Source: Minisyncoccota bacterium (GTDB lineage Bacteria; Patescibacteriota; Minisyncoccia; Phycocordibacterales; UBA9973). Taken from it: a stretch of DNA of 64,000 bases. Of the stretch, positions 3,370 through 64,000 are shown piece by piece. The stretch lies in assembly GCA_041657885.1 (NCBI GenBank), contig JBBABB010000001.1, positions 267,184 through 331,183 of the forward strand, written 5' to 3'. The notes under the pieces were generated by a model. The model worked only from the letters and a program-made list of their open reading frames with translations, was not told the DNA's origin and searched no databases. Each line of letters begins with the position of its first letter. Positions within the stretch are counted from its first letter, which is position 1. The position numbers and the translations under genes were made by a program.

Positions 3370-5076
3370 TTAGTGATATAAGTCAAAGTATTCTGGAGTA
3401 TAAACACTTATATAATCTATGACTTCGCTCATTACTCGAGTTGCATTACCTGATGCTGCTTTGGGACCACGCTCCATAACGAGGGCAAAGGCATATTTAG
3501 GATTATCATACGGGAAAAAACCTATTATCCAAGAGTTTGTATTTGTATTACCAAGTCCGACTTGTGCCGTACCAGACTTGGCAGCAACTTTTACATTTAC
3601 TAGATTAAGCGCTGTCGCAGTCCCCTCTGTTACTGCCATTCTCATACCCTCGTGTATAACATTTATATTATTGGCATCAACGGGAATAGTTATTTTTTGT
3701 GATTCAAAACTGCTATCTGCAAGAGTAATATGCGGAGTATAAATTGTTCCCATATTTGCAATTCCTGCTATTGCTTTTACCATTTGAATAGGAGTCACTT
3801 GAAAACCATACTGACCAATGGCAGTATTATAAGTATCACCAACTCGCCATATTTCCCCTTTAAATGTTTTTGTTTTCCATTCTGGAGTCGGGATTGTGCC
3901 GTCCTTTTCACCATTAAGATTAATCCCTGTCTTTTCTCCTATTCCAAATAATCTTGAATATTTATCAATATTTACTATACCTAAACCTTTTTGACTTTCA
4001 TATCCACCACCTATTTCATAAAAATATACGTCAGAAGAAATTGCAATCGCTTTTCTCATATCCACATAACCGAAAGTCCCGTGGTCCTTAAATACCGATT
4101 TTTTATCTGGAAAATAAGGATTAGGAATAGAAATTGACCCATTTGAGAAAATTACCTTTAATGGACTAATAATATTCTCAACTAACGCTCCATATCCCAA
4201 AAATGGTTTTATTATAGAACCTGGACTATACAATCCAGAAATAGTACGATTCAAAAATACTTTTCTTTTATCTGAAAAATATCCATTTATTGTTTTACTA
4301 TCACTGCCAAGAGATAAAACATTTCCATCGTATTCTGGAAAGCTGGTGATAGCGAGTAATTCACCAGTTTTTATATCCATAATTACTCCAGCTCCACCTT
4401 GGAAATTCACGTTTTGTGCCATCGACGATATTGAATCATACATTTTTTTTTGAATTCTGGAATCGATAGAAAGATTTATATTTTCCCCCGCTTTAGGTGG
4501 TGATATTATATTTTCTGATTGAATAACTCCATTAACATCTGTTTCTGTAATACGAACCCCATTGACTCCCGTGAGAATGTCATTATAAAAATTCTCTACC
4601 CCATCTTTACCTATAAAATTATCTTGCCAATAACGTCCAGATGAGTCTTTAGCTGGAGAGCTCACATAACCAAGAAGCAACCCAAATCCTGGGGATGAAT
4701 AATAAGATCTCTCGGGCGAAGATAATTTATTTATATCTTCCTTGTCCCATGTGTTCCAAGAAAGCAAAACTCCCTTACGATCATATATTAATCCCCTGTC
4801 AGAAAAAATAGGTTGCTTCTGGAGTGTATTATTTTCACTTTTTTTGAAATATGACCCACCTTTAATTATTTGGAGATTAAAAACTTGCCCAATGAATATA
4901 AATGATATCCCAAGAAAGAACAACCCGACCCAAAAGATAGAACGCTTTGATATTGCCTTCTCTAACCTGCCTTCAAACTGTTGTATATTAAAATTAGGTA
5001 AGTTTTTAGAATCAAGAAAAATTTCATCCGGATCAATATCTTTTTTTATTCGATTGTGATTAATGTGAAACCTCAT
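3370..5076 (-). CDS. Class B penicillin-binding protein (FtsI/PBP2-type transpeptidase)
   Basis: The 568 aa protein has an N-terminal TM anchor, a dimerisation domain and a transpeptidase domain with SXXK (SIIK), SXN (SSD) and KSGT (KSGTA) motifs. Confidence 0.85.
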   Translation of the reverse strand: MRFHINHNRIKKDIDPDEIFLDSKNLPNFNIQQFEGRLEKAISKRSIFWVGLFFLGISFIFIGQVFNLQIIKGGSYFKKSENNTLQKQPIFSDRGLIYDRKGVLLSWNTWDKEDINKLSSPERSYYSSPGFGLLLGYVSSPAKDSSGRYWQDNFIGKDGVENFYNDILTGVNGVRITETDVNGVIQSENIISPPKAGENINLSIDSRIQKKMYDSISSMAQNVNFQGGAGVIMDIKTGELLAITSFPEYDGNVLSLGSDSKTINGYFSDKRKVFLNRTISGLYSPGSIIKPFLGYGALVENIISPLKVIFSNGSISIPNPYFPDKKSVFKDHGTFGYVDMRKAIAISSDVYFYEIGGGYESQKGLGIVNIDKYSRLFGIGEKTGINLNGEKDGTIPTPEWKTKTFKGEIWRVGDTYNTAIGQYGFQVTPIQMVKAIAGIANMGTIYTPHITLADSSFESQKITIPVDANNINVIHEGMRMAVTEGTATALNLVNVKVAAKSGTAQVGLGNTNTNSWIIGFFPYDNPKYAFALVMERGPKAASGNATRVMSEVIDYISVYTPEYFDLYH

Positions 5077-5083
5077 TTTAATT

Positions 5084-5347
5084 TTATTTTTTATATAAAA
5101 TAATATTATTTTTTATATACTCAATTGCAATATATAAAGTTATAAGAACTGAAGAGAAAAATATTGGGGAAGAAATTATTCTATCTCCAGGAATAGTATA
5201 TAAAGAATAGATGATTACGCTAGCTACTATAAATTCATAAAAATTATTAAAAATAAATATACCAATAAATAACAAAAAAATACTAACCCACCAAGGAAAA
5301 ATAAAAACCGAAAGAAATAATACTATATCAAAAATAACTCTTTTCAT
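5084..5347 (-). CDS. Hypothetical small integral membrane protein
   Basis: The 87 aa protein is very hydrophobic with 2-3 predicted TM helices. It sits just upstream of the PBP gene on the same strand. Confidence 0.4.
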   Translation of the reverse strand: MKRVIFDIVLFLSVFIFPWWVSIFLLFIGIFIFNNFYEFIVASVIIYSLYTIPGDRIISSPIFFSSVLITLYIAIEYIKNNIILYKK

Positions 5348-56065: not shown

Positions 56066-56084
56066 TAAAAATGTAATTGGGTTT

Positions 56085-56495
56085 TTATCCATGGTTTAGT
56101 TTATTTCGGAATCTCTTATTTTCAAGTTGGCGGATACCTGCTTCACTAAAACCGAAATGATGCCCGACTTCATGCCAGACAACTTCGTAAACTAGCTCCT
56201 TTATTTTTTCTGGGTCGCCTGCGCAAATATTTTCTATCGGTTTCTGAAAGATAGTAATCTTGTCGGGTAGAACATTGAAATACCCTTCCCCCCGCTTCGT
56301 CCGAGGTACACCTTCATAGAGCCCAAGAAGTGTTTGTCTGAGCATTATATTTTTCTCTCTTAATTTTCTGCTTCGAGTCTCGTCTTCCACAAAAAAAGCA
56401 ACATTGTTGATTTTCTTTTTTATGTTATCTGGAAACCTCTTTAGTGCGTCCGCCACCAACTTTTCAAAATCTTCTGTTCTCATATTGTGCCCCAC
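56085..56495 (-). CDS. Zincin-like metallopeptidase (DUF1025/Zincin_1 family)
   Basis: The 136 aa protein has an HExxH motif in VVWHEVGHHFGFSE. Confidence 0.5.
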   Translation of the reverse strand: MGHNMRTEDFEKLVADALKRFPDNIKKKINNVAFFVEDETRSRKLREKNIMLRQTLLGLYEGVPRTKRGEGYFNVLPDKITIFQKPIENICAGDPEKIKELVYEVVWHEVGHHFGFSEAGIRQLENKRFRNKLNHG

Positions 56496-56500
56496 TAATA

Positions 56501-56755
56501 TTACTCTGCCGGGAAAATTGCCAAACCTTCCCCTGCTTTTTGTGAAAGCTTTATTGCTATCTCTTGTCCCTTTTTCCCTGACTGGATTGGCTTATGATCC
56601 AGTTCCATGGAAGTGATTGTCTCCTCAAACTCTTGGCCACCGTGTTTTATTTTTATCTTGTCTCCAACTCGAAGAACTTCATTGAGTTTGACCACAGCTA
56701 CGCTAATCTTGTCGTACCAGTGGGTTATTTTCCCAATTGAATTATTTTTTACCAT
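56501..56755 (-). CDS. Hypothetical small beta-barrel protein (EF-Tu domain-2-like)
   Basis: The 84 aa protein has the G-x-I-x-G ... GD-x-I pattern (IGKITHWYDKISVAVVKLNEVLRVGDKIKIK) of translation-factor beta-barrel domains. Confidence 0.3.
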   Translation of the reverse strand: MVKNNSIGKITHWYDKISVAVVKLNEVLRVGDKIKIKHGGQEFEETITSMELDHKPIQSGKKGQEIAIKLSQKAGEGLAIFPAE

Positions 56756-56858
56756 AAAATTTATATGTTAAATTGTTTTATAAAATCGACTCCTTTTTTC
56801 TCTCTAATACTATAATTGTAATACAAACAACAAAAAAAGAAAACAAGCCAACCAAATA

Positions 56859-56890
56859 ACATTCTCACATTCTTGAGAATGTGAGAATGT
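56859..56890. repeat. Family E perfect palindrome (acattctcacattcttgagaatgtgagaatgt) immediately downstream of the ArsR-family gene
   Basis: It is a 32-bp near-perfect inverted repeat. Related copies lie at 57184-57219, 10723-10754 and 15403-15432. Confidence 0.8.
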
Positions 56891-57171
56891 TAAAATTGGC
56901 TAATAAAAAGACAGAAATTCTTTCCGTAGGGGGAAATAGTATGTTCTACTTTGCGTCCTCTATATGATTTATTTAGCAAACCGGCTTGAACTAGACGTCG
57001 AGTATGTTCAGATATAGTTTTCATATTACAATCCAGACTCTCTGCAATATCTTCTAATGTAATCCCTGAATTTTTAAACACAAGCATTAATATCGCAATA
57101 CGACGATGATTTGCTACTCCCTTAAAATGCCTTTCAAGTTGTTTGGCTGTTTTTAATTTATTTGTTTTCAT
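56890..57171 (-). CDS. ArsR/SmtB-family winged-helix transcriptional regulator
   Basis: The 93 aa protein has an HTH in ANHRRIAILMLVFKNSGITLEDIAESLDCNMKTISEHTRRLVQAGLL followed by a wing (SYRGRKVEHTI). Confidence 0.65.
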   Translation of the reverse strand: MKTNKLKTAKQLERHFKGVANHRRIAILMLVFKNSGITLEDIAESLDCNMKTISEHTRRLVQAGLLNKSYRGRKVEHTISPYGKNFCLFISQF

Positions 57172-57183
57172 ATTTTTATTCTA

Positions 57184-57219
57184 CCACATTCCGACATTCT
57201 TGAGAATGTCGGAATGTGG
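57184..57219. promoter_or_regulatory. Family E 36-bp perfect palindrome (ccacattccgacattcttgagaatgtcggaatgtgg) in the promoter region of the ArsR-family gene; candidate operator
   Basis: It lies between the sppA stop (57234) and the ArsR start (57171). It shares the core ACATTCTTGAGAATGT with three other copies. Confidence 0.5.
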
Positions 57220-57233
57220 TTTAATACTTATTT

Positions 57234-58130
57234 TTACTCCCAGCAAATCTCTAGTTTCTCCCCTATTACTCCTTCGAGATATTTCTCAACTTCATTTATT
57301 CCCCCTATCTCATCTATCAAACCTAGTTCTTTCGCTTTCTCTCCAAGTACTGTTGAACCATCGGCAAATTTTTTGACTTCCTCTATCGGTATTTTACGAT
57401 TATCTGAAACTGCTTTGACGAAATTCTCATAAATAATATTTACATCTCTCATAAACAAATCTTTTTCTTCTTTAGTTAAAGACATATCAGGACTTCCAGA
57501 ATCTTTAAATTTACCTGAACTTAACTGCTCATATGCATATCCCTCTTTTTTATTATTTTCTGCATTATTCAAATAAGACATTGTCACTCCAATACTTCCC
57601 ACATCTGAATTCTTTGATGCCCATATTCTACTTGCGCTACTTATTGACCAATATGCAGACGAAGCTCCTATATCTCTTATGAAAGCAATGACTGGCTTAT
57701 CACTATTTTTAATCGCGTCAGCAATCTCTTCTCCAGCTACAGGTGAACCACCAACTGAATCCACTTCAACTACAATAGCTTTAATATCAGGATTTGCATT
57801 GGCATTTTGTATTGACCAGAGAACGTTTTCACTCGCAACAACATCATAATCAACAGAAGGGTCACCCTCTGCATGCTCCGGTATATACGTCATTACAGTT
57901 CCATGCAAGTTAATACCTGTAACTGTGCAATCCTCATTTATATATTTATCAGAACCATCTGAAAATGAATTATTACCAGAAGGCCAACCAATCACAAAAT
58001 AAAGGATAATTCCCCCAATCCCGATACCTAAAGCAATAATCAATATCCACCTAATAGGTGACACAAGTTTTTTAAAAAATGTTTTAATTTTTTCCAATAT
58101 AATTTTCCCTTTAAATGTCGGCTCGTCCAT
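57234..58130 (-). CDS. sppA: Signal peptide peptidase SppA (S49 family, 36K type)
   Basis: The 298 aa protein has an N-terminal TM segment and an S49 catalytic region (IRDIGASSAYWSISSASRIWASKNSDVGSIGV). Confidence 0.75.
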   Translation of the reverse strand: MDEPTFKGKIILEKIKTFFKKLVSPIRWILIIALGIGIGGIILYFVIGWPSGNNSFSDGSDKYINEDCTVTGINLHGTVMTYIPEHAEGDPSVDYDVVASENVLWSIQNANANPDIKAIVVEVDSVGGSPVAGEEIADAIKNSDKPVIAFIRDIGASSAYWSISSASRIWASKNSDVGSIGVTMSYLNNAENNKKEGYAYEQLSSGKFKDSGSPDMSLTKEEKDLFMRDVNIIYENFVKAVSDNRKIPIEEVKKFADGSTVLGEKAKELGLIDEIGGINEVEKYLEGVIGEKLEICWE

Positions 58131-58226
58131 AAAGTTATACTTTCATCATAAACCTTTTTATAAAAGATGACAAATTATTCCATAATAAGAACTGCTCTTG
58201 TTATACAATGGAGGATATAATTGAAG

Positions 58227-58541
58227 TTATTTTATCATTTTAAAAACGACTTCATCACCATCAAAAAGTGGAGAATATTGTTTTGGTGGATAACCATTGA
58301 TAGTAAACCCTAATTCCCCTGGCTTACAAACTTTCATCATTTTGGGATATTCCATAAAAATACTATTAAGTAAAAACATAAAATTAGCACTAGTACTCAT
58401 CGCTACTTTGTGACCAGAAGTACCTGTTATTTTTTCTAAATTTTTATCAAATATAACATTAATAGAGATAGAACTTGAAAAATTTTTTTCATCTTGAATT
58501 TCAGGCTTATATGATTTTACTTTTTGTATTTTTGTTTTCAT
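58227..58541 (-). CDS. Hypothetical protein
   Basis: The 104 aa ORF overlaps the upstream ORF by 4 nt, which suggests translational coupling. I recognise no family. Confidence 0.35.
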   Translation of the reverse strand: MKTKIQKVKSYKPEIQDEKNFSSSISINVIFDKNLEKITGTSGHKVAMSTSANFMFLLNSIFMEYPKMMKVCKPGELGFTINGYPPKQYSPLFDGDEVVFKMIK

Positions 58542-58753
58542 AAAATTATTCTTTTCTTAATCTCATCTAGCACTTTTAAAAACTCCTCAATGTGATCATG
58601 AAATATGACGATATTATTTTTGATTCGCTCTTCATTTTCTTGCCTAGATTCTGTGATGTGGAGATATTTCTCACCTGATTTAGTCATCCTTATATCAAAA
58701 AAGTATGTCCGACCCCCGGCTTTAATGTTTTTTGAATAAATAGATTCTTGCAT
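58538..58753 (-). CDS. PUR-alpha-like (DUF3276-like) nucleic-acid-binding protein
   Basis: The 71 aa protein has KAGGRTYFFDIRMTKSGEKYLHITESR, which matches the bacterial PUR-like repeat pattern. Confidence 0.35.
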   Translation of the reverse strand: MQESIYSKNIKAGGRTYFFDIRMTKSGEKYLHITESRQENEERIKNNIVIFHDHIEEFLKVLDEIKKRIIL

Positions 58754-58774
58754 AATATTTATTATTTAGTTATT

Positions 58775-59374
58775 TTATTTTTTCCAGATAATATGTCCAT
58801 TAATACTATGCTTTTCATAAGTTTCTAGGATATCGGTACAAAACTTTTCTAATTCCCTATTATTTTCACTTTTTGCTAATTCATATAAACGAATGAACAT
58901 TCTCTTGCCAGTTTCGGTTTGTTTTAAATTTTTCTTAATAAAATTATGTTGTGAGCATAAAATTTGTCCATTTTCAATTGTTGCTTCACCTCCAAGATCT
59001 TTGGGTTTTATATGATCAACATGTAAATCAATACCGTCTTTTTTACCTCTGCCACAAATTACACATTTATATCCATCTCTTTTCAGAATTATCACTTTTT
59101 GAGCAACAGTAAAATCTTCCAATTCTCTTTTGTATGCTTTATCGGGATCATATTTATAAATCCCTTTTGCAATTTTTATTAAAAAACCACTTTGAGATAA
59201 ATGACGAATAGCTCTGTCGGGGTCACGAAAAACATTGCCTGTTCTTTTCAGATAAGTTGATACCACCCAATCAACAACTTCTGGGTGTTTTATATCTCTA
59301 TTTGGATTTTTCTTAAAAAACTCAATAATAAGGTTTTTTTGAATATTATTATTTTTCTTATTGTTTTTTTTCAT
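58775..59374 (-). CDS. HNH endonuclease (candidate restriction endonuclease partner of the adjacent methyltransferase)
   Basis: The 199 aa protein has an HNH/zinc-finger core DGYKCVICGRGKKDGIDLHVDHIKPKDLGGEATIENGQILCSQHN. The N-terminal winged-helix-like domain is K-rich. Confidence 0.65.
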   Translation of the reverse strand: MKKNNKKNNNIQKNLIIEFFKKNPNRDIKHPEVVDWVVSTYLKRTGNVFRDPDRAIRHLSQSGFLIKIAKGIYKYDPDKAYKRELEDFTVAQKVIILKRDGYKCVICGRGKKDGIDLHVDHIKPKDLGGEATIENGQILCSQHNFIKKNLKQTETGKRMFIRLYELAKSENNRELEKFCTDILETYEKHSINGHIIWKK

Positions 59375-59378
59375 AAAA

Positions 59379-60305
59379 TTATTTCAATAAATTTAATTGA
59401 TTAATTTTTGCTTCTTCTTGTAAGCGTTTTATTGCCATATTACAATAATCTTTATCTATATCAATACCAATTCCTTTTCTATTATGTAAATAAGAAGCAA
59501 TAAGAGTTGACCCACTACCTAAAAATGGATCCAATACTATATCACCAATAAAACTAAAAAGTTTTATGCATCGTTTTGGTAATTCAACTGGAAATGGTGC
59601 AGGATGTCCACCTGCCCCCTTTTTACTTTGTCCATTAAATGTCCAAATGCCATTTGTCCAATCCATAAATTCTTTTTTAGTAATATCATTTTCTCTACTA
59701 TTTCCAGTTTTTTTCCAGCTATCTTTATATAAAACTAATATTAGTTCTACTGGTGCAATAACATAAGGAGCAGAGGCAGACATAAAAGAACCCCATGCGG
59801 TACGACGAGATATATTTCCTTCGTTCCAAATAATTGTTGAGTGATATTTCCAGCCAACATCTTTTGCAATTTTTGTAATATCCGCACCAACAGACTTCTG
59901 TCCTCCTTTATTTTTATCAAGTGGAATGTTGAGTAAAAATCGTCCTTCATTTTTAGCTAAATCAAAACATTTTTTAATCCATTTTTGAGTAAATTCTAAA
60001 TAATCTTCATAGGTTAAATTATCACCATTGGAATTATAATGAATGTCAACATTATATGGTGGCGAAGTAATAATCAAATCAACTGAATTGTTTGGAATTG
60101 TGGAAATTTTTAAAATATCATCATTAAAAATTTTTATATTCTTTGTTTCAAAATAAACCCCATCCATTTTTTTTGCAATTGGAACAGAGTATGAGGCCAC
60201 TGAAGTCTCGCGAACTAAATCATTTTTCAAAGATGGTTTTTTATAATATTTCCTGATTATTTTTTGTGTTTTTTTATAAATCTTTTTTTGTTTTTTATTT
60301 TTCAT
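59379..60305 (-). CDS. DNA methyltransferase, beta-class amino-MTase (N4-cytosine or N6-adenine)
   Basis: Motif IV DLIITSPPYN precedes motif I VLDPFLGSGSTLIAS, the beta permutation found in PF01555 N4/N6 methyltransferases. Confidence 0.75.
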   Translation of the reverse strand: MKNKKQKKIYKKTQKIIRKYYKKPSLKNDLVRETSVASYSVPIAKKMDGVYFETKNIKIFNDDILKISTIPNNSVDLIITSPPYNVDIHYNSNGDNLTYEDYLEFTQKWIKKCFDLAKNEGRFLLNIPLDKNKGGQKSVGADITKIAKDVGWKYHSTIIWNEGNISRRTAWGSFMSASAPYVIAPVELILVLYKDSWKKTGNSRENDITKKEFMDWTNGIWTFNGQSKKGAGGHPAPFPVELPKRCIKLFSFIGDIVLDPFLGSGSTLIASYLHNRKGIGIDIDKDYCNMAIKRLQEEAKINQLNLLK

Positions 60306-60342
60306 TAGTCATATTATATCATATTTAAAAGCTTTTTGTATA

Positions 60343-60603
60343 TTACCAACTCTTATACGCATCTTTGCGATGGTGGATTCTAAGGATTAAAATAACGAGT
60401 TCTTTTTTTCTTATTTCATATATAATCCGAAAAGGCCAGGCTCGCATAGAATATTGATTTGGTAATTCACCACTCAATTTCTTCCCAGAAAAAGGATACT
60501 TGAGAATTGCTTCAAGAATTACACGAGCTTTTATACGGTCTGCATCTTCTAAATTAGCGAGTCCTTTTTTTGCTCTTGGTTTTAGAACGAGTATAAACGC
60601 CAT
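60343..60603 (-). CDS. RelE/ParE-family type II toxin
   Basis: The 86 aa protein has WPFRIIYEIRKKELVILILRIHHRKDAYK, which matches the RelE/ParE C-terminal pattern. Confidence 0.6.
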   Translation of the reverse strand: MAFILVLKPRAKKGLANLEDADRIKARVILEAILKYPFSGKKLSGELPNQYSMRAWPFRIIYEIRKKELVILILRIHHRKDAYKSW

Positions 60604-60925
60604 ATTTTCTTTTTGGTTTTTCTGCGACCTTTACTGCCATCCCCCATTCTCTTTTTAAATCATCAAATGTGGACCATTTTTTCCATTCACCAGTACGAAA
60701 TGCTTCATCTGCTTCTGCAATGTCTTTTTTAATATCAGGAAATTCTTCTAAAACAGAAATTGTTTCAATCAATGATTCATATTCCTCGGCAGACATAATA
60801 ACTACCTTTGGTTTGCCACCTTCGGTAATAGTATAAACTCTGTTTGGTATTTGCACTTCTTCGGCAATATCAAATATGCGCTTACGAGCCTCTGTTATTG
60901 AAATTGTTCTTTTTGTATCCATCAT
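60554..60925 (-). CDS. Phd/YefM-family antitoxin (overlaps the toxin start; basic C-terminal extension)
   Basis: The N-terminus ISITEARKRIFDIAEEVQIPNRVYTITEGGKPKVVIMSAEEYESLIETISVLE is Phd/YefM-like. It lies upstream of and overlaps the RelE-like ORF. Confidence 0.6.
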   Translation of the reverse strand: MMDTKRTISITEARKRIFDIAEEVQIPNRVYTITEGGKPKVVIMSAEEYESLIETISVLEEFPDIKKDIAEADEAFRTGEWKKWSTFDDLKREWGMAVKVAEKPKRKYGVYTRSKTKSKKRTR

Positions 60926-60964
60926 ATGTGTACATTATAACGTACATACTTTTTTAAAGCAAGC

Positions 60965-61624
60965 TTATAAAATTTTTGCTTGTTGAAAACTCAAATAGCC
61001 ACTTTTACTTAAAATGATATGATCTATAATATTAATGCCAAGAATTTTACCAGCTTCCACTAAACGCTTTGTAACTTCTTTATCTTCAGGCGAAGGTTCT
61101 AAATCTCCAGATGGATGATTATGTGCAATAATTATACTCGCTGCATGAAAAGATAATGCAGGTTCAAAAACTTCCCGTGGGTGCACAAGACTGGCATTCA
61201 ATGTTCCGATAGAAATAGTCTGACGTTCTATAAGACAATTTTGAGTATCAAGATAAAAAGCAACGAAATTTTCTCTTTGCAATGTACGAATATCCGCGCA
61301 AAAATTCCAAACATCACTCGCAGAAAGAATTTCTGGTTTATTTTCAGTATTTAATCTTTTTCCTAATTCAAGGAGAGCTGTGATTTGTGAAGCTTTTGCA
61401 GAGCCAAGACCTTTTATTTCTAATAAATCCTTGAGAGTTATTTTTTTAATTCCTATTTTTTTTATCTTTACTAAAATTTTCTTTGATAATTCAAGAACAT
61501 TTAACCCTTGAATTCCAGAACCTAAGAGAAGTGCTAAAAGTTCATAATCTTTTAATTTTTCAGAACCATATTTTGCAAGTTTTTCACGGGGTAAATCTAC
61601 TTTTTGTAAATCTTTAATTTTCAT
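60965..61624 (-). CDS. radC: RadC-like JAB/MPN-domain protein (UPF0758)
   Basis: The 219 aa protein has an N-terminal HhH-like region and the JAMM motif HNHPSGDLEPSPED. Confidence 0.75.
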   Translation of the reverse strand: MKIKDLQKVDLPREKLAKYGSEKLKDYELLALLLGSGIQGLNVLELSKKILVKIKKIGIKKITLKDLLEIKGLGSAKASQITALLELGKRLNTENKPEILSASDVWNFCADIRTLQRENFVAFYLDTQNCLIERQTISIGTLNASLVHPREVFEPALSFHAASIIIAHNHPSGDLEPSPEDKEVTKRLVEAGKILGINIIDHIILSKSGYLSFQQAKIL

Positions 61625-61693
61625 AATTAATTCGTAATTACTCTTCCATCATACTCCTTTTTTCTCATCTTCTCAAACCCCCAAAGAAAAAGG

Positions 61694-61726
61694 TCGCATC
61701 CAATCTGATTGGGCGACCTTAATTAG
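61694..61726 (-). terminator. Hairpin plus T-tract (minus strand) ending an ORF-less transcription unit
   Basis: The minus strand reads AAGGTCGCCCAATCAGATTGGATGCGACCTTTTTCTTTGG, an 8-bp outer stem plus inner palindrome followed by T-rich sequence. Confidence 0.45.
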
Positions 61727-62282
61727 CATCTTGAATTTTCATGGGGGAATTTTTTTGTAAAACTTTTAATAATTAAACAAATTTTTCTGCGTATTTTCGG
61801 CAGTGTTTATTGCCACAGCAATAAACGGAATTGTTATTTAAAGACACTTTCCATTTTGCTGATTTTTTACAATCTGGCTTTAAACAAATTTTTTTTCGAC
61901 TTAAACTCCAAGATACTTTTTGAAAAATCAGTCGTTCTTTTGTCATAGTAGTGCGTTTTTAGATTAACGAATTTTGCCTTCATTTTACAATTTATGGAGG
62001 GAGTTGTCAAATTAAACTTTTTGCACAAAATTAAAAGATGAAATTTTTTGTATGCTTCGCATGCAGAATTATTGTGTATCACGAGTTACTAAGTATAGCG
62101 GACCATGAGTACATTTCTCGCCCGCGACTAAAATTAGTGTTGTATGCTTCATATGCTAAATTATTGTGTATCACGAGTTACTAAATTTTTTGCTTCATTA
62201 AATCGCAAAAAACGTAAGTACTCGCGACCCCGGCTCGGTAATTTTTGTACTCAAAAATTATACCTGCGCCTTCCACAGACTA

Positions 62283-62310
62283 AAAATCCCCAAGCAGTTG
62301 GGGATTTTTT
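62283..62310 (-). terminator. Rho-independent terminator immediately after tRNA-Ala
   Basis: aaaaatccccaagcagttggggatttttt is a 10-bp stem with flanking A and T tracts. The outer repeat cacagac...gtctgtg extends it. Confidence 0.6.
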
Positions 62311-62317
62311 ACGTCTG

Positions 62318-62390
62318 TGGACCTTAGCGGACTCGGACCGCTTGCCTCCTCATTGCAAATGAGGCGCTCTACCAGATGAGCTAAAGGCCC
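62318..62390 (-). tRNA. tRNA-Ala (anticodon TGC)
   Basis: The minus-strand read GGGCCTTTAGCTCATCTGGTAGAGCGCCTCATTTGCAATGAGGAGGCAAGCGGTCCGAGTCCGCTAAGGTCCA has a G3:U70 identity pair, anticodon loop TTTGCAA and an unusual T-loop TCCGAGT. Confidence 0.75.
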
Positions 62391-62484
62391 AATGTAAACA
62401 TCTTACCGTATTTTTATTTTTTTGCAATAGTTAGTTTTATACTTTTCAATAAAAAACAAAAGTGATCTCCCTCTTTTTTATATA

Positions 62485-63621
62485 CTATCTCACAGGAAAA
62501 TATTCTCCTGTGAGATTCTTTGAAAGGACAAACTGATACAGCTGACTCTTTCTTGAACGGAAGGAGGCAGCGGAAGATAAAAGGTAATACTCCCACATAC
62601 GATAAAACCTTTCATCGTAATAATCGGATTTTACCTTGTCCCAATTTCTTTTGAAATTTCTATACCAAGCCATTAATGTTTTATCATAATGTCTTGGCCC
62701 AAAATTGTGAAGATCATGGATTGTAAACAACCTCTCAGATGCTTTCGCTATTTGTTTTATTGAAGGCACCATAGAATTCGGGAAGATGTACTTTCCGAGC
62801 CAAGGTTCAGAGTGTGTTACAGACTTCAATTCTCCGATAGTATGCAAGAGAAATAAACCACCATCGGCAAGAGATTTGTGAACAATTTTCATAAACTCTC
62901 TGTGGTTTTTGTAACCAACATGTTCAATCATGCCACAAACTACTATTTTGGAAAATTTCTCTTTTTCTAGGTCACGGTAATCCATTTGTATTATCGTGAC
63001 GGGTAAACCACTCGTAAAATTGCGAGCGTATTCGGCCTGTTCCGAAGAAATAGTTACGCCAGTTACCCGGCAACCATAATTCTTTGAAGCAAACTTTGCA
63101 AACCCTCCCCAGCCACAACCAATGTCTAAAACATGGTCTTCGGGGGTAAGTTTTAATTTCTGACAAATGAGATGAAGTTTTTGTTCTTGGGCTACACCAA
63201 GAGCATCAGTATTTTTAAAATATCCACATGTGTATTGATTATATGGGTCTAAAAATGATTCATATAATTCCGGGGACAAATCGTAGTGATCTCTCGCCAC
63301 TTTCGTACTCCCTGAGCGGGTTTGGGGATTGAAAAGAATAGCTCCAAGGTATGAAAACGCTATTCTCCACGGATTTATTTTTTTATCCAAATTCGCGTTT
63401 AAAATCTTCGTGAAAAACTCATCAAGTTTTTCACAATTAAACCACCCGTCCATATATGCCTCACCTAATCCAAGCGAGCCATAGCGGATGACACGGTAGT
63501 AAAGCGGAACAAGAAATTGAGGCTCAATACGGATATCCCAAGGATTTGGGCCATTGACCTCGACCCCTGAACCACTTAATAAGTGATTAATTTTATGCAA
63601 CGCTTTTTCTTCTTTCTTCAT
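62485..63621 (-). CDS. cfa: Cyclopropane-fatty-acyl-phospholipid synthase family SAM-dependent methyltransferase
   Basis: The 378 aa protein has SAM motif I VLDIGCGWGGFAKFASKNYGCRVTGVTIS and a CFA-synthase-like N-terminal and C-terminal organisation. Confidence 0.75.
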   Translation of the reverse strand: MKKEEKALHKINHLLSGSGVEVNGPNPWDIRIEPQFLVPLYYRVIRYGSLGLGEAYMDGWFNCEKLDEFFTKILNANLDKKINPWRIAFSYLGAILFNPQTRSGSTKVARDHYDLSPELYESFLDPYNQYTCGYFKNTDALGVAQEQKLHLICQKLKLTPEDHVLDIGCGWGGFAKFASKNYGCRVTGVTISSEQAEYARNFTSGLPVTIIQMDYRDLEKEKFSKIVVCGMIEHVGYKNHREFMKIVHKSLADGGLFLLHTIGELKSVTHSEPWLGKYIFPNSMVPSIKQIAKASERLFTIHDLHNFGPRHYDKTLMAWYRNFKRNWDKVKSDYYDERFYRMWEYYLLSSAASFRSRKSQLYQFVLSKNLTGEYFPVR

Positions 63622-63813
63622 ATTTTTATATTATACATTAAACCTAAAAAGAGTAAAATTATGTGCGCGTCCATTTGGGAAACCTAGTTGACAACAATTT
63701 TCACTTGTGGCACTATAGTGAAGATATTGGCTCTTTGATATTTGAGTTAAGTATTTGGTTAGTTTTCTTAGCTTCTTTAGGGAATTTAAGATAACTAACC
63801 AAAAAATAAAAAT

Positions 63814-64000
63814 ATGATACAAGCCGTTGCTTTATTAGCTGAATTGTTCTTTGGTGATTTAATGACTGAAGAACAACCCACTGTAGAAAAATACCCGAAT
63901 TTTACTAACCGAAGAGGGGAAGAGTTATCTTTGGAAGATATTATAGATGGAAGAGTAGTGACTATTGCAGAAATTACTTATCTTTTTAAAAAACCCGCAA
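63814..64000 (+). CDS. Hypothetical protein, 5' partial ORF running off the window end
   Basis: The ATG at 63814 opens a frame with no stop before the window end (MIQAVALLAELFFGDLMTEEQPTVEKYPNFTNRRGEELSLEDIIDGRVVTIAEITYLFKKP...). It is preceded by an AT-rich spacer. Confidence 0.3.
   Translation, partial: MIQAVALLAELFFGDLMTEEQPTVEKYPNFTNRRGEELSLEDIIDGRVVTIAEITYLFKKPA

Follow-up and report, generated by a model that had tools for sequence, protein, structure and literature searches.

The 64,000-nt stretch of Minisyncoccota DNA analysed here (contig JBBABB010000001.1, 361,958 bp, of a metagenome-assembled genome labelled Candidatus Paceibacterota; hereafter the window, to which all positions refer) contains a compact islet of candidate defence and addiction genes between sppA and a tRNA-Ala(tgc) gene. 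Seven minus-strand open reading frames (ORFs) occupy this interval and encode, in the direction of transcription, RadC, a Phd antitoxin, a RelE toxin, a beta-class DNA methyltransferase, an HNH nuclease, a DUF3276 protein and a 104-aa protein (Table 1). An earlier note on this DNA, prepared from the letters alone, had described the same seven ORFs; the coordinates are borne out by the ORF list, and Pfam confirms the labels HNH, N6_N4 methyltransferase, RelE/ParE, Phd, RadC and DUF3276. That note interpreted the islet as a Type II restriction-modification pair and a toxin-antitoxin pair within an island integrated at the tRNA gene. Comparison contigs and loci are designated L0xx below.

Table 1. 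Genes, signals and segments at the sppA/tRNA-Ala locus, in window coordinates.
Feature	Position	Strand	Basis
Strain-variable segment, 3,491 bp, RadC through 104-aa gene	58182-61672	.	comparison with L043
104-aa protein	58227-58541	-	no Pfam match
DUF3276 (PUR-like) small protein	58538-58753	-	Pfam DUF3276, E 5e-15
Core of mobile restriction-modification cassette, methyltransferase residue ~50 to HNH stop	58770-60155	-	blastn
Candidate Type II restriction endonuclease, HNH, 199 aa	58775-59374	-	PF01844, E 1e-8
Beta-class DNA methyltransferase	59379-60305	-	Pfam N6_N4_Mtase, E 5e-46
Putative promoter-like site, TATACA/18 nt/TG-TATAAT, between relE stop and methyltransferase start	60313-60342	-	consensus scan 10/12, extended -10 TG
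RelE/ParE-superfamily toxin, 86 aa	60343-60603	-	Pfam ParE_toxin (PF05016), E 4e-11
Phd/YefM antitoxin, 123 aa	60554-60925	-	Pfam PhdYeFM_antitox (PF02604), E 2e-14
Full-length RadC	60965-61624	-	Pfam RadC, E 1e-42; UPF0758_N and JAB domains
Intrinsic-terminator-like hairpin, GGTCGC...GCGACC then T run	61683-61719	-	read from sequence
Cys-rich 57-aa ORF	61773-61946	-	ORF list
Promoter-like site of 57-aa ORF, sigma-70-like, 11/12	62010-61982	-	consensus scan
Repeat copy 1, 45 nt	62048-62092		direct repeat
Structured element, partial second copy: repeat copy 1 and degenerate strand of long helix	62048-62135	-	
Structured element, full copy including repeat copy 2	62133-62324	-	covariance model, 201 bits, E 8e-49
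Repeat copy 2, 45 nt	62140-62184		direct repeat
tRNA-Ala(tgc), G3:U70 pair, CCA not encoded	62317-62390	-	ARAGORN; Rfam tRNA, 63.3 bits

The methyltransferase-HNH pair

The methyltransferase and HNH genes are separated by 4 nt, as the earlier note stated, and they travel together. There are more than 3,000 homologs of the HNH protein (the best 120 are 80-89% identical), with source labels that include Minisyncoccia, Nealsonbacteria, Levybacteria, Taylorbacteria, Ratteibacteria and a euryarchaeote. On contigs of 130-253 kb from Nealson-, Levy- and Ratteibacteria a homologous methyltransferase gene invariably precedes the HNH gene, the gap being 4-5 nt and the flanks unrelated. Aligned by blastn, the window segment 60155-58770 is 79-82% identical in DNA to these three lineages over 1.36-1.38 kb; homology begins ~50 codons into the methyltransferase gene and ends at the HNH stop codon, and the flanks share nothing. 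By contrast, the host SppA has one relative at 86% and all others are at or below 77% (at or below 73% over nearly full length). At 90% identity the HNH protein falls in a cluster of 118 members and the methyltransferase in one of 160, whereas RadC, RelE, DUF3276 and SppA are each alone in theirs. The methyltransferase cluster takes in proteins labelled Elusimicrobiota, Endomicrobiia and Falkowbacteria. The pair was seen in L001-L009, L069 and L074, and rearranged in L055, which is a small sample rather than a census; the HNH gene adjoins a methyltransferase gene in every context examined.

More distant copies are known from a phage and a plasmid. The plasmid, pCALNI01 of Calditerrivibrio nitroreducens DSM 19672 (a cultured member of the phylum Deferribacterota), has both families with their gene order unchanged, at 63% and 59% identity (WP_013447291, WP_013447292), but with a 15-nt gap rather than 4, generic annotation, and IS256 and TnpB genes alongside; we found no experimental characterisation of this pair. 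The 33-kb tailed-phage contig L074 (IMGVR_UViG_3300017698_000302) carries the pair at 3920-5342 with 64% and 71% identity, its genes overlapping by 8 nt and lying between those for a minor head protein and a prohead protease and capsid. Phages could be a vector for spread of the cassette. A peptide-pattern search of viral contigs for close HNH relatives returned none, and the L074 copy surfaced through its methyltransferase.

The methyltransferase has the motif order of the beta class, SPPY followed by DPFLGSGST, and both the catalytic (SPPY) and the S-adenosylmethionine-binding motifs are intact. It matches the PADLOC MTase_II model (PDLC03353) at E 5e-97, and its best PDB matches are 2zie and N4-cytosine methyltransferases, with residues 67-299 aligning to 2zie at E 2e-25. 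From the SPPY motif, N4-cytosine methylation of a short specific sequence is predicted. TTHA0409 (2zie), M.PvuII (1boo) and the bacterial N4-cytosine methyltransferases (8s9n) have the motif order and catalytic motif in common with the window enzyme, which differs from all of them in a non-homologous, Lys-rich N-terminal extension of ~50 aa. Homologous methyltransferases either have shorter N termini (279-280 aa) or are fused to LexA and S24 domains, as in L001.

This fusion (L001 4545-5996; Nealsonbacteria GCA_016188865.1) is a 483-aa protein that joins a LexA DNA-binding domain, an S24 peptidase and an N6_N4_Mtase domain; it is also present in L002 and L003, and suggests LexA-type, possibly damage-responsive, autoregulation of restriction-modification. 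A different arrangement is found in L055 (4737-6503). There a tRNA-Ala gene and its trailing element come first, then an HTH_3 gene (80 aa) that overlaps an HNH gene of 60% identity, and last, in convergent orientation, an N6_N4 methyltransferase gene truncated at the edge of the contig. Such a layout is typical of Type II systems regulated by a controller protein, and the occurrence of several regulatory front ends (HTH_3, LexA-S24) fits a system that needs controlled expression.

Three regions can be distinguished in the HNH protein: an N-terminal winged-helix-like region (with a weak match to the AbiEi N terminus at residues 46-83), a zinc-bound HNH domain and a C-terminal helical region. 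Residues C104, C107, D120, H121, N135, C140, H143 and N144 are invariant across 38 homologs, the zinc ligands including C104, C107 and C140, and D120, H121, N135, H143 and N144 belonging to the active-site set. Because these catalytic and zinc-binding residues are invariant and the methyltransferase matches MTase_II so strongly, the enzymes of the pair look functional. The full-length HNH family is small (~50 clusters at 50% identity, E <=1e-30), with the window protein in one strongly expanded branch.

Sequence and profile searches of the PDB with the nuclease return only IscB HNH domains and generic HNH proteins. The protein is not an IscB, because it is 199 aa long and adjoins a methyltransferase; the NCBIfam IscB score is 38.5 bits against a cut-off of 175, and only the HNH core is shared. 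Its likeness is to Type II systems with HNH nucleases, which similarly combine a small nuclease, a zinc-bound HNH motif (CxxC...DH...N...CxxH), an additional DNA-binding region and a cognate methyltransferase next door; KpnI is one such enzyme. Hpy99I and PacI are likewise HNH-type Type II restriction enzymes (PMC3765158), but the window nuclease has no sequence similarity to them beyond the HNH core, and neither was recovered by the PDB profile search at E up to 10. The winged-helix-like and C-terminal helical regions are specific to the window nuclease family. Gene context argues strongly for a restriction role and for the pair as a Type II restriction-modification system. Linkage, horizontal spread and family membership of the pair are observed, and the role of the nuclease is read from its neighbours.

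Could the HNH protein instead be a homing, nicking, phage-packaging or methylation-dependent nuclease, with an orphan or phage anti-restriction methyltransferase travelling along? Its similarity to known proteins is confined to the generic HNH core, the best matches being IscB HNH domains and phage HNH families, and the L074 pair sits inside a phage head-gene module; HNH proteins do occur in phage packaging modules (PMC3592412). We nevertheless consider this clearly unlikely, as the same methyltransferase family adjoins the nuclease in every context seen, including a plasmid and chromosomes free of phage genes, the variant with a controller-type HTH gene and a convergent methyltransferase gene has a typical restriction-modification layout, and the methyltransferase-first order and 4-nt gap fit coupled expression. 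A methylation-dependent nuclease beside an active methyltransferase would, moreover, be self-toxic.

As to sequences under restriction, the most depleted palindromes in the window are GATC (60 observed, 161 expected; z -8) and TCGA (82 observed, 156 expected; z -6). The depletion suggests that restriction has acted on these two sites over a long time in this lineage, and it is assignable to no system here. A guess at the recognition site of the pair from word avoidance was dropped, the cassette being recently acquired and six-base words underpowered in 64 kb.

Variable cargo between relE and sppA

The islet is non-core and variable, in agreement with the island reading of the earlier note: in L043, a contig of a near-identical strain, the corresponding flanks enclose another cassette. 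L043 matches the window at 98% over 62027-61673 and at 96% over 58181-54823, and in place of the intervening 3,491 bp of the window (58182-61672) it has 1,125 bp of unrelated DNA; the L043 insert contains a 67-aa ORF and a 191-aa Methylase_S (Type I specificity-subunit) gene. On one side the junction lies 11 nt past the terminator-like hairpin, which is common to the window and L043, and on the other it lies just upstream of the sppA promoter. Contig L039, from the same sample as L043, has the window-type arrangement, placing both variants in one sample, and same-species contigs are arranged identically to the window. No integrase or transposase appears in the Pfam tables for the ~8 kb upstream of the islet or the ~4 kb downstream.

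Several minor features accompany the block and its edges. The Methylase_S gene of L043 (825-1400) encodes a lone, half-size specificity subunit, with neither HsdM nor HsdR visible on the contig. A 14/15-nt near-copy of the RadC start region (ATGAAAATTCAAGAT) is present at 61728-61742 (compared with 61610-61624), in the conserved flank just outside the block, and may be the trace of an earlier rearrangement or a chance match. A palindromic element of ~35-50 nt, which is terminator-like or repetitive extragenic palindromic (REP)-like, occurs in the window after sppA (57177-57236) and after an ArsR-like gene (56857-56892), and in L043 at the right edge of the alternative cassette (1403-1453). When the genome collection was scanned with SppA, the closest loci (L010-L012, 61-64% identity) showed no synteny upstream of sppA, and no empty site was obtained.

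At the upstream end of the block the earlier note correctly identified a Phd/RelE pair, whose genes overlap by 50 nt. Matches to PF02604 (53.7 bits, cut-off 29.8) and PF05016 (43.8 bits, cut-off 23) exceed the family thresholds, and the NCBIfam YoeB and RelE matches of the toxin are weak and below their cut-offs; we infer a classical type II toxin-antitoxin pair. RadC is also what that note took it to be, although it is the full-length protein and not the short form found on mobile elements: it matches the NCBIfam equivalog PRK00024 at 230 bits (cut-off 180), with a UPF0758 N-terminal domain and a JAB domain bearing the HNHPSG motif.

The RadC-Phd-RelE order is retained in L070 and L071, and L072 has Phd-RelE at a contig end. 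The Phd proteins of all three fall within the 90% cluster of the window Phd. Between the window and L070, Phd is 95% and RelE 92% identical, against 65-70% for core proteins. At the DNA level the Phd/RelE genes are 94-98% identical among the window, L070, L071 and L072. For RadC, identity is 69-78%. Because the identity of Phd/RelE is so far above that of the core proteins, the pair looks to have been recently exchanged or to be unusually constrained. The chromosomal context of the triad in L070 is different from that in the window.

What follows relE differs in each genome. In L070 it is a Type I system; in L071 a Mod-like methyltransferase, a ResIII helicase and a NucS_C protein, together Type III-like; and in L072 a Type I system with AAA_21 and RloB genes. 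Homology to the window in these three contigs ends at 60343-60354, no more than 11 nt from the relE stop. A similar turnover is seen directly upstream of sppA. Here L044/45 encode an NgoPII nuclease and a C5 methyltransferase, L043 encodes Methylase_S, and L046/47 have two methyltransferases, N6_N4 and D12, partnered by proteins of 389 and 113 aa, respectively. After relE, therefore, there is a Type II system once, Type I twice and a Type III-like system once, and before sppA there are four different restriction-modification gene sets. The locus is a defence hot spot with conserved flanks and variable restriction-modification cargo.

E. coli CP4-type cryptic prophages offer a parallel to the triad, in that RadC-like genes lie beside toxin-antitoxin pairs (yeeS with cbeA/cbtA, ykfG and yfjY). 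RadC/JAB genes there are likewise directly upstream of a toxin-antitoxin pair in variable DNA; the window differs in having a full-length RadC with the UPF0758 N-terminal domain, Phd/RelE in place of CbeA/CbtA, and no prophage. Defence hot spots described for Pseudomonas, Acinetobacter and phages P2/P4 (PMC12629846, PMC11723918, PMC9122126) similarly have fixed anchors, here the relE stop and the sppA promoter, and varied cargo. The present locus differs from these in belonging to a genome-reduced lineage of the candidate phyla radiation, in having cargo that so far consists of restriction-modification genes only, and in its upstream anchor, a RadC-toxin-antitoxin triad found in differing chromosomal contexts.

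A more ambitious suggestion, which we advance tentatively and consider rather unlikely, is that the triad does more than sit nearby, and serves as a landing pad or functional partner on which restriction-modification cassettes of Paceibacteria are interchanged. Systems of Types I, II and III would replace one another precisely at the stop codon of relE. Establishment, stabilisation or back-up of the downstream system would involve RadC or the toxin-antitoxin pair, and triad and cargo would move together as a composite defence unit.

A strain-variable islet of separable modules

We favour, with a probability of about three in four, the interpretation that the locus is a strain-variable defence and addiction islet of separable modules, situated in a recombination hot spot of Candidatus Paceibacterota and not integrated at the tRNA gene. 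In the first module the methyltransferase would mark N4-cytosine in host DNA and the nuclease would cut DNA lacking that mark. The two genes are probably co-transcribed from the putative promoter just after relE, and the methyltransferase-first order and shared promoter would ensure that protection is made with or before the nuclease. This cassette spreads horizontally as a bare gene pair, among classes of the candidate phyla radiation and into other phyla, a plasmid and a phage. In the second module, the conserved RadC-Phd-RelE triad, the toxin-antitoxin pair may stabilise the locus or abort infection, and the third, DUF3276 with the 104-aa gene, would comprise lineage-specific passengers. 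Since neither a recombinase nor a flanking repeat is present, cargo is presumably exchanged by recombination in or beside the conserved neighbours.

Several points weigh against this interpretation. L043, which documents block replacement, is a single 4.8-kb metagenome contig, and the relatives that inform the sppA side are distant (SppA 66-75% identity), such that gene order there may differ for unrelated reasons. GC, GC3 (GC at third codon positions) and skew do not set the islet apart: its GC of 0.28-0.31 is a weak dip from the window average of ~0.33, and GC3 of its genes is within ~1.6 standard deviations of other genes, so the comparison of GC and codon usage proposed in the earlier note does not mark the block as foreign. 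The activities of the pair are predictions from sequence and gene context; the PADLOC REase_II match of the nuclease is weak (E 6e-4) and confined to the generic HNH core. The predicted HNH structure is poor and gives no basis for fold comparison (predicted local distance difference test, pLDDT, 58; predicted template-modelling score, pTM, 0.34; 38 homologs, all at least 80% identical). Taxon labels of the metagenome-assembled genomes are depositor-given, and some may reflect mis-binning.

It is conceivable that the block is ordinary, vertically inherited chromosome whose variability stems from assembly artefacts or simple deletions, the restriction-modification genes being ancient residents. 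Its unremarkable composition and identical arrangement in same-species contigs are in keeping with this, as are RadC, RelE, DUF3276 and the 104-aa protein, all of which have only lineage-restricted close relatives. However, the cassette is ~80% DNA-identical across phyla compared with 68-78% for core genes of the nearest relatives, and the HNH homolog and 90%-cluster data argue against a match to the species tree. L043 reflects replacement with intact alternative genes and not deletion, and four genomes have four different systems after the same relE gene. Vertical inheritance is therefore highly improbable.

Restriction-modification cassettes, toxin-antitoxin pairs and defence hot spots are established kinds of system. 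Bacteria of the candidate phyla radiation have tiny genomes, mostly without CRISPR, and are thought to rely on restriction-modification; genomic islands with restriction-modification systems have been reported in Patescibacteria (PMC12455944). What is new is in the detail: an uncharacterised HNH restriction-enzyme family spread widely across phyla and into a phage, a slot with RadC and a toxin-antitoxin pair as its anchor, open to systems of Types I, II and III, and an unannotated structured element trailing tRNA-Ala genes. The islet as we interpret it is a concrete example of a tiny genome keeping its restriction repertoire fluid, with a fixed slot whose borders are a toxin-antitoxin gene and a housekeeping promoter and whose occupant changes from lineage to lineage, and with an HNH-based cassette that is 80-89% identical at the protein level across several phyla and has also reached a phage. 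The practical consequences are modest, the pair being a candidate for a new restriction enzyme specificity and the tRNA-Ala element a candidate RNA family.

The tRNA-Ala element and the small genes

The tRNA-Ala(TGC) gene and two 45-bp direct repeats are present where the earlier note placed them, the repeats being 91% identical; a 25-mer common to both occurs nowhere else in the window, with 0 expected by chance. The proposal that the block is an island integrated site-specifically into or next to tRNA-Ala, with the repeats as attachment-site remnants, is largely refuted and the least probable of those considered here. In its favour, the block is strain-variable (as L043 shows) and less than 0.7 kb from the tRNA gene, L055 has a related restriction-modification system directly after tRNA-Ala and its trailing element, and L057 has tRNA-Ala, the element and an NRAMP gene adjacent without the 6 kb of the window. 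Against it, the block stops at 61672/61673, leaving 645 nt before the 3' end of the tRNA, and no integrase or transposase is in the neighbourhood. The two repeats fall outside the block, both on one flank, and their similarity to tRNA-Ala is no better than that of shuffled sequence; no tRNA-Ala fragment of 10 nt or longer is duplicated near the islet, and the repeat-bearing element trails tRNA-Ala genes even where there is no island. The missing segment in L057 corresponds to 56071-62097, and at ~75% identity this contig is weak evidence for an empty site.

The repeats are instead the conserved end of a predicted structured element that trails tRNA-Ala genes. A 22-mer of the repeat is found in 10 metagenome contigs (L048-L057), in which homology of 75-88% reaches from the repeat as far as a tRNA gene, that for tRNA-Val(cac) in one case and for tRNA-Ala (tgc, ggc or cgc) in the others. 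The spacing from the repeat to the tRNA 3' end is ~155 nt and constant in most copies, two copies having insertions. An alignment of 11 copies of the ~190-nt element supports 46 base pairs in 8 helices, 25 of the pairs with compensatory changes, and 95.7% of cells are paired, compared with 83.5% in shuffled alignments and 32-45% when partners are slid by 1-3 columns. In two hairpins pairing is kept while the sequence is completely turned over. The last bases of the tRNA form part of the first stem, inside which lies a terminator-like hairpin.

Matches to the covariance model above 80 bits occur only beside tRNA-Ala or tRNA-Val genes. Within the window there is one match, at the tRNA-Ala gene, and none at the five other tRNAs; repeat copy 1 belongs to a truncated tandem copy of the element. 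A search of 57000-64000 with the 4,227 Rfam covariance models returned only the tRNA itself at E <=1 and nothing for the element, and the repeat motif has no match in viral contigs. Folding energy and G-U counts favour the tRNA strand (32 G-U versus 7 A-C cells), on which the element would be a 3' trailer. Of the 32 G-U cells, however, 22 belong to just two invariant pairs, and the structure prediction itself was made for that strand, so that this strand assignment is tentative. The element is a candidate new tRNA-linked structured RNA and may represent a new RNA family. The repeats were also considered as promoters, which was rejected as neither strand has a sigma-70-like match, and as a TIGR/CRISPR-like array, which was rejected as the copies number only two and are embedded in the conserved structure linked to the tRNA, and as Tas and Cas genes are absent.

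At the sppA end of the islet, the 104-aa protein has no match in Pfam, NCBIfam, PADLOC or PHROGs, and only 6 homologs in a collection of 5.8 billion proteins. As all of these are only 61-95 aa long, the annotated start of the gene may be too far upstream. By eye only, the C-terminal part resembles a ThiS/MoaD-type beta-grasp fold. In L073 a homolog is located after GuaA and an ArsR-like gene, in surroundings free of restriction-modification genes. DUF3276, whose 90% cluster is a singleton, is absent beside the cassette in other genomes. A defence role for these two proteins finds no support in PADLOC, PHROGs, homolog searches or the L073 context.

Beyond RadC, the adjacent 550-bp region that the earlier note called ORF-less does include a truly ORF-less stretch of ~370 bp, but it also contains a 57-aa ORF. 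The hairpin at the end of this transcription unit was seen by direct reading and was not listed by the terminator scan. Two metagenome gene callers call the ORF, in L039 and L043, and the region is 98% conserved in L043. The NCBI record appears to lack an annotation for it, judging from the unbroken series of accessions between RadC and the CFA synthase gene. The encoded protein has the cysteine pattern C-x4-C ... CC-x4-C.

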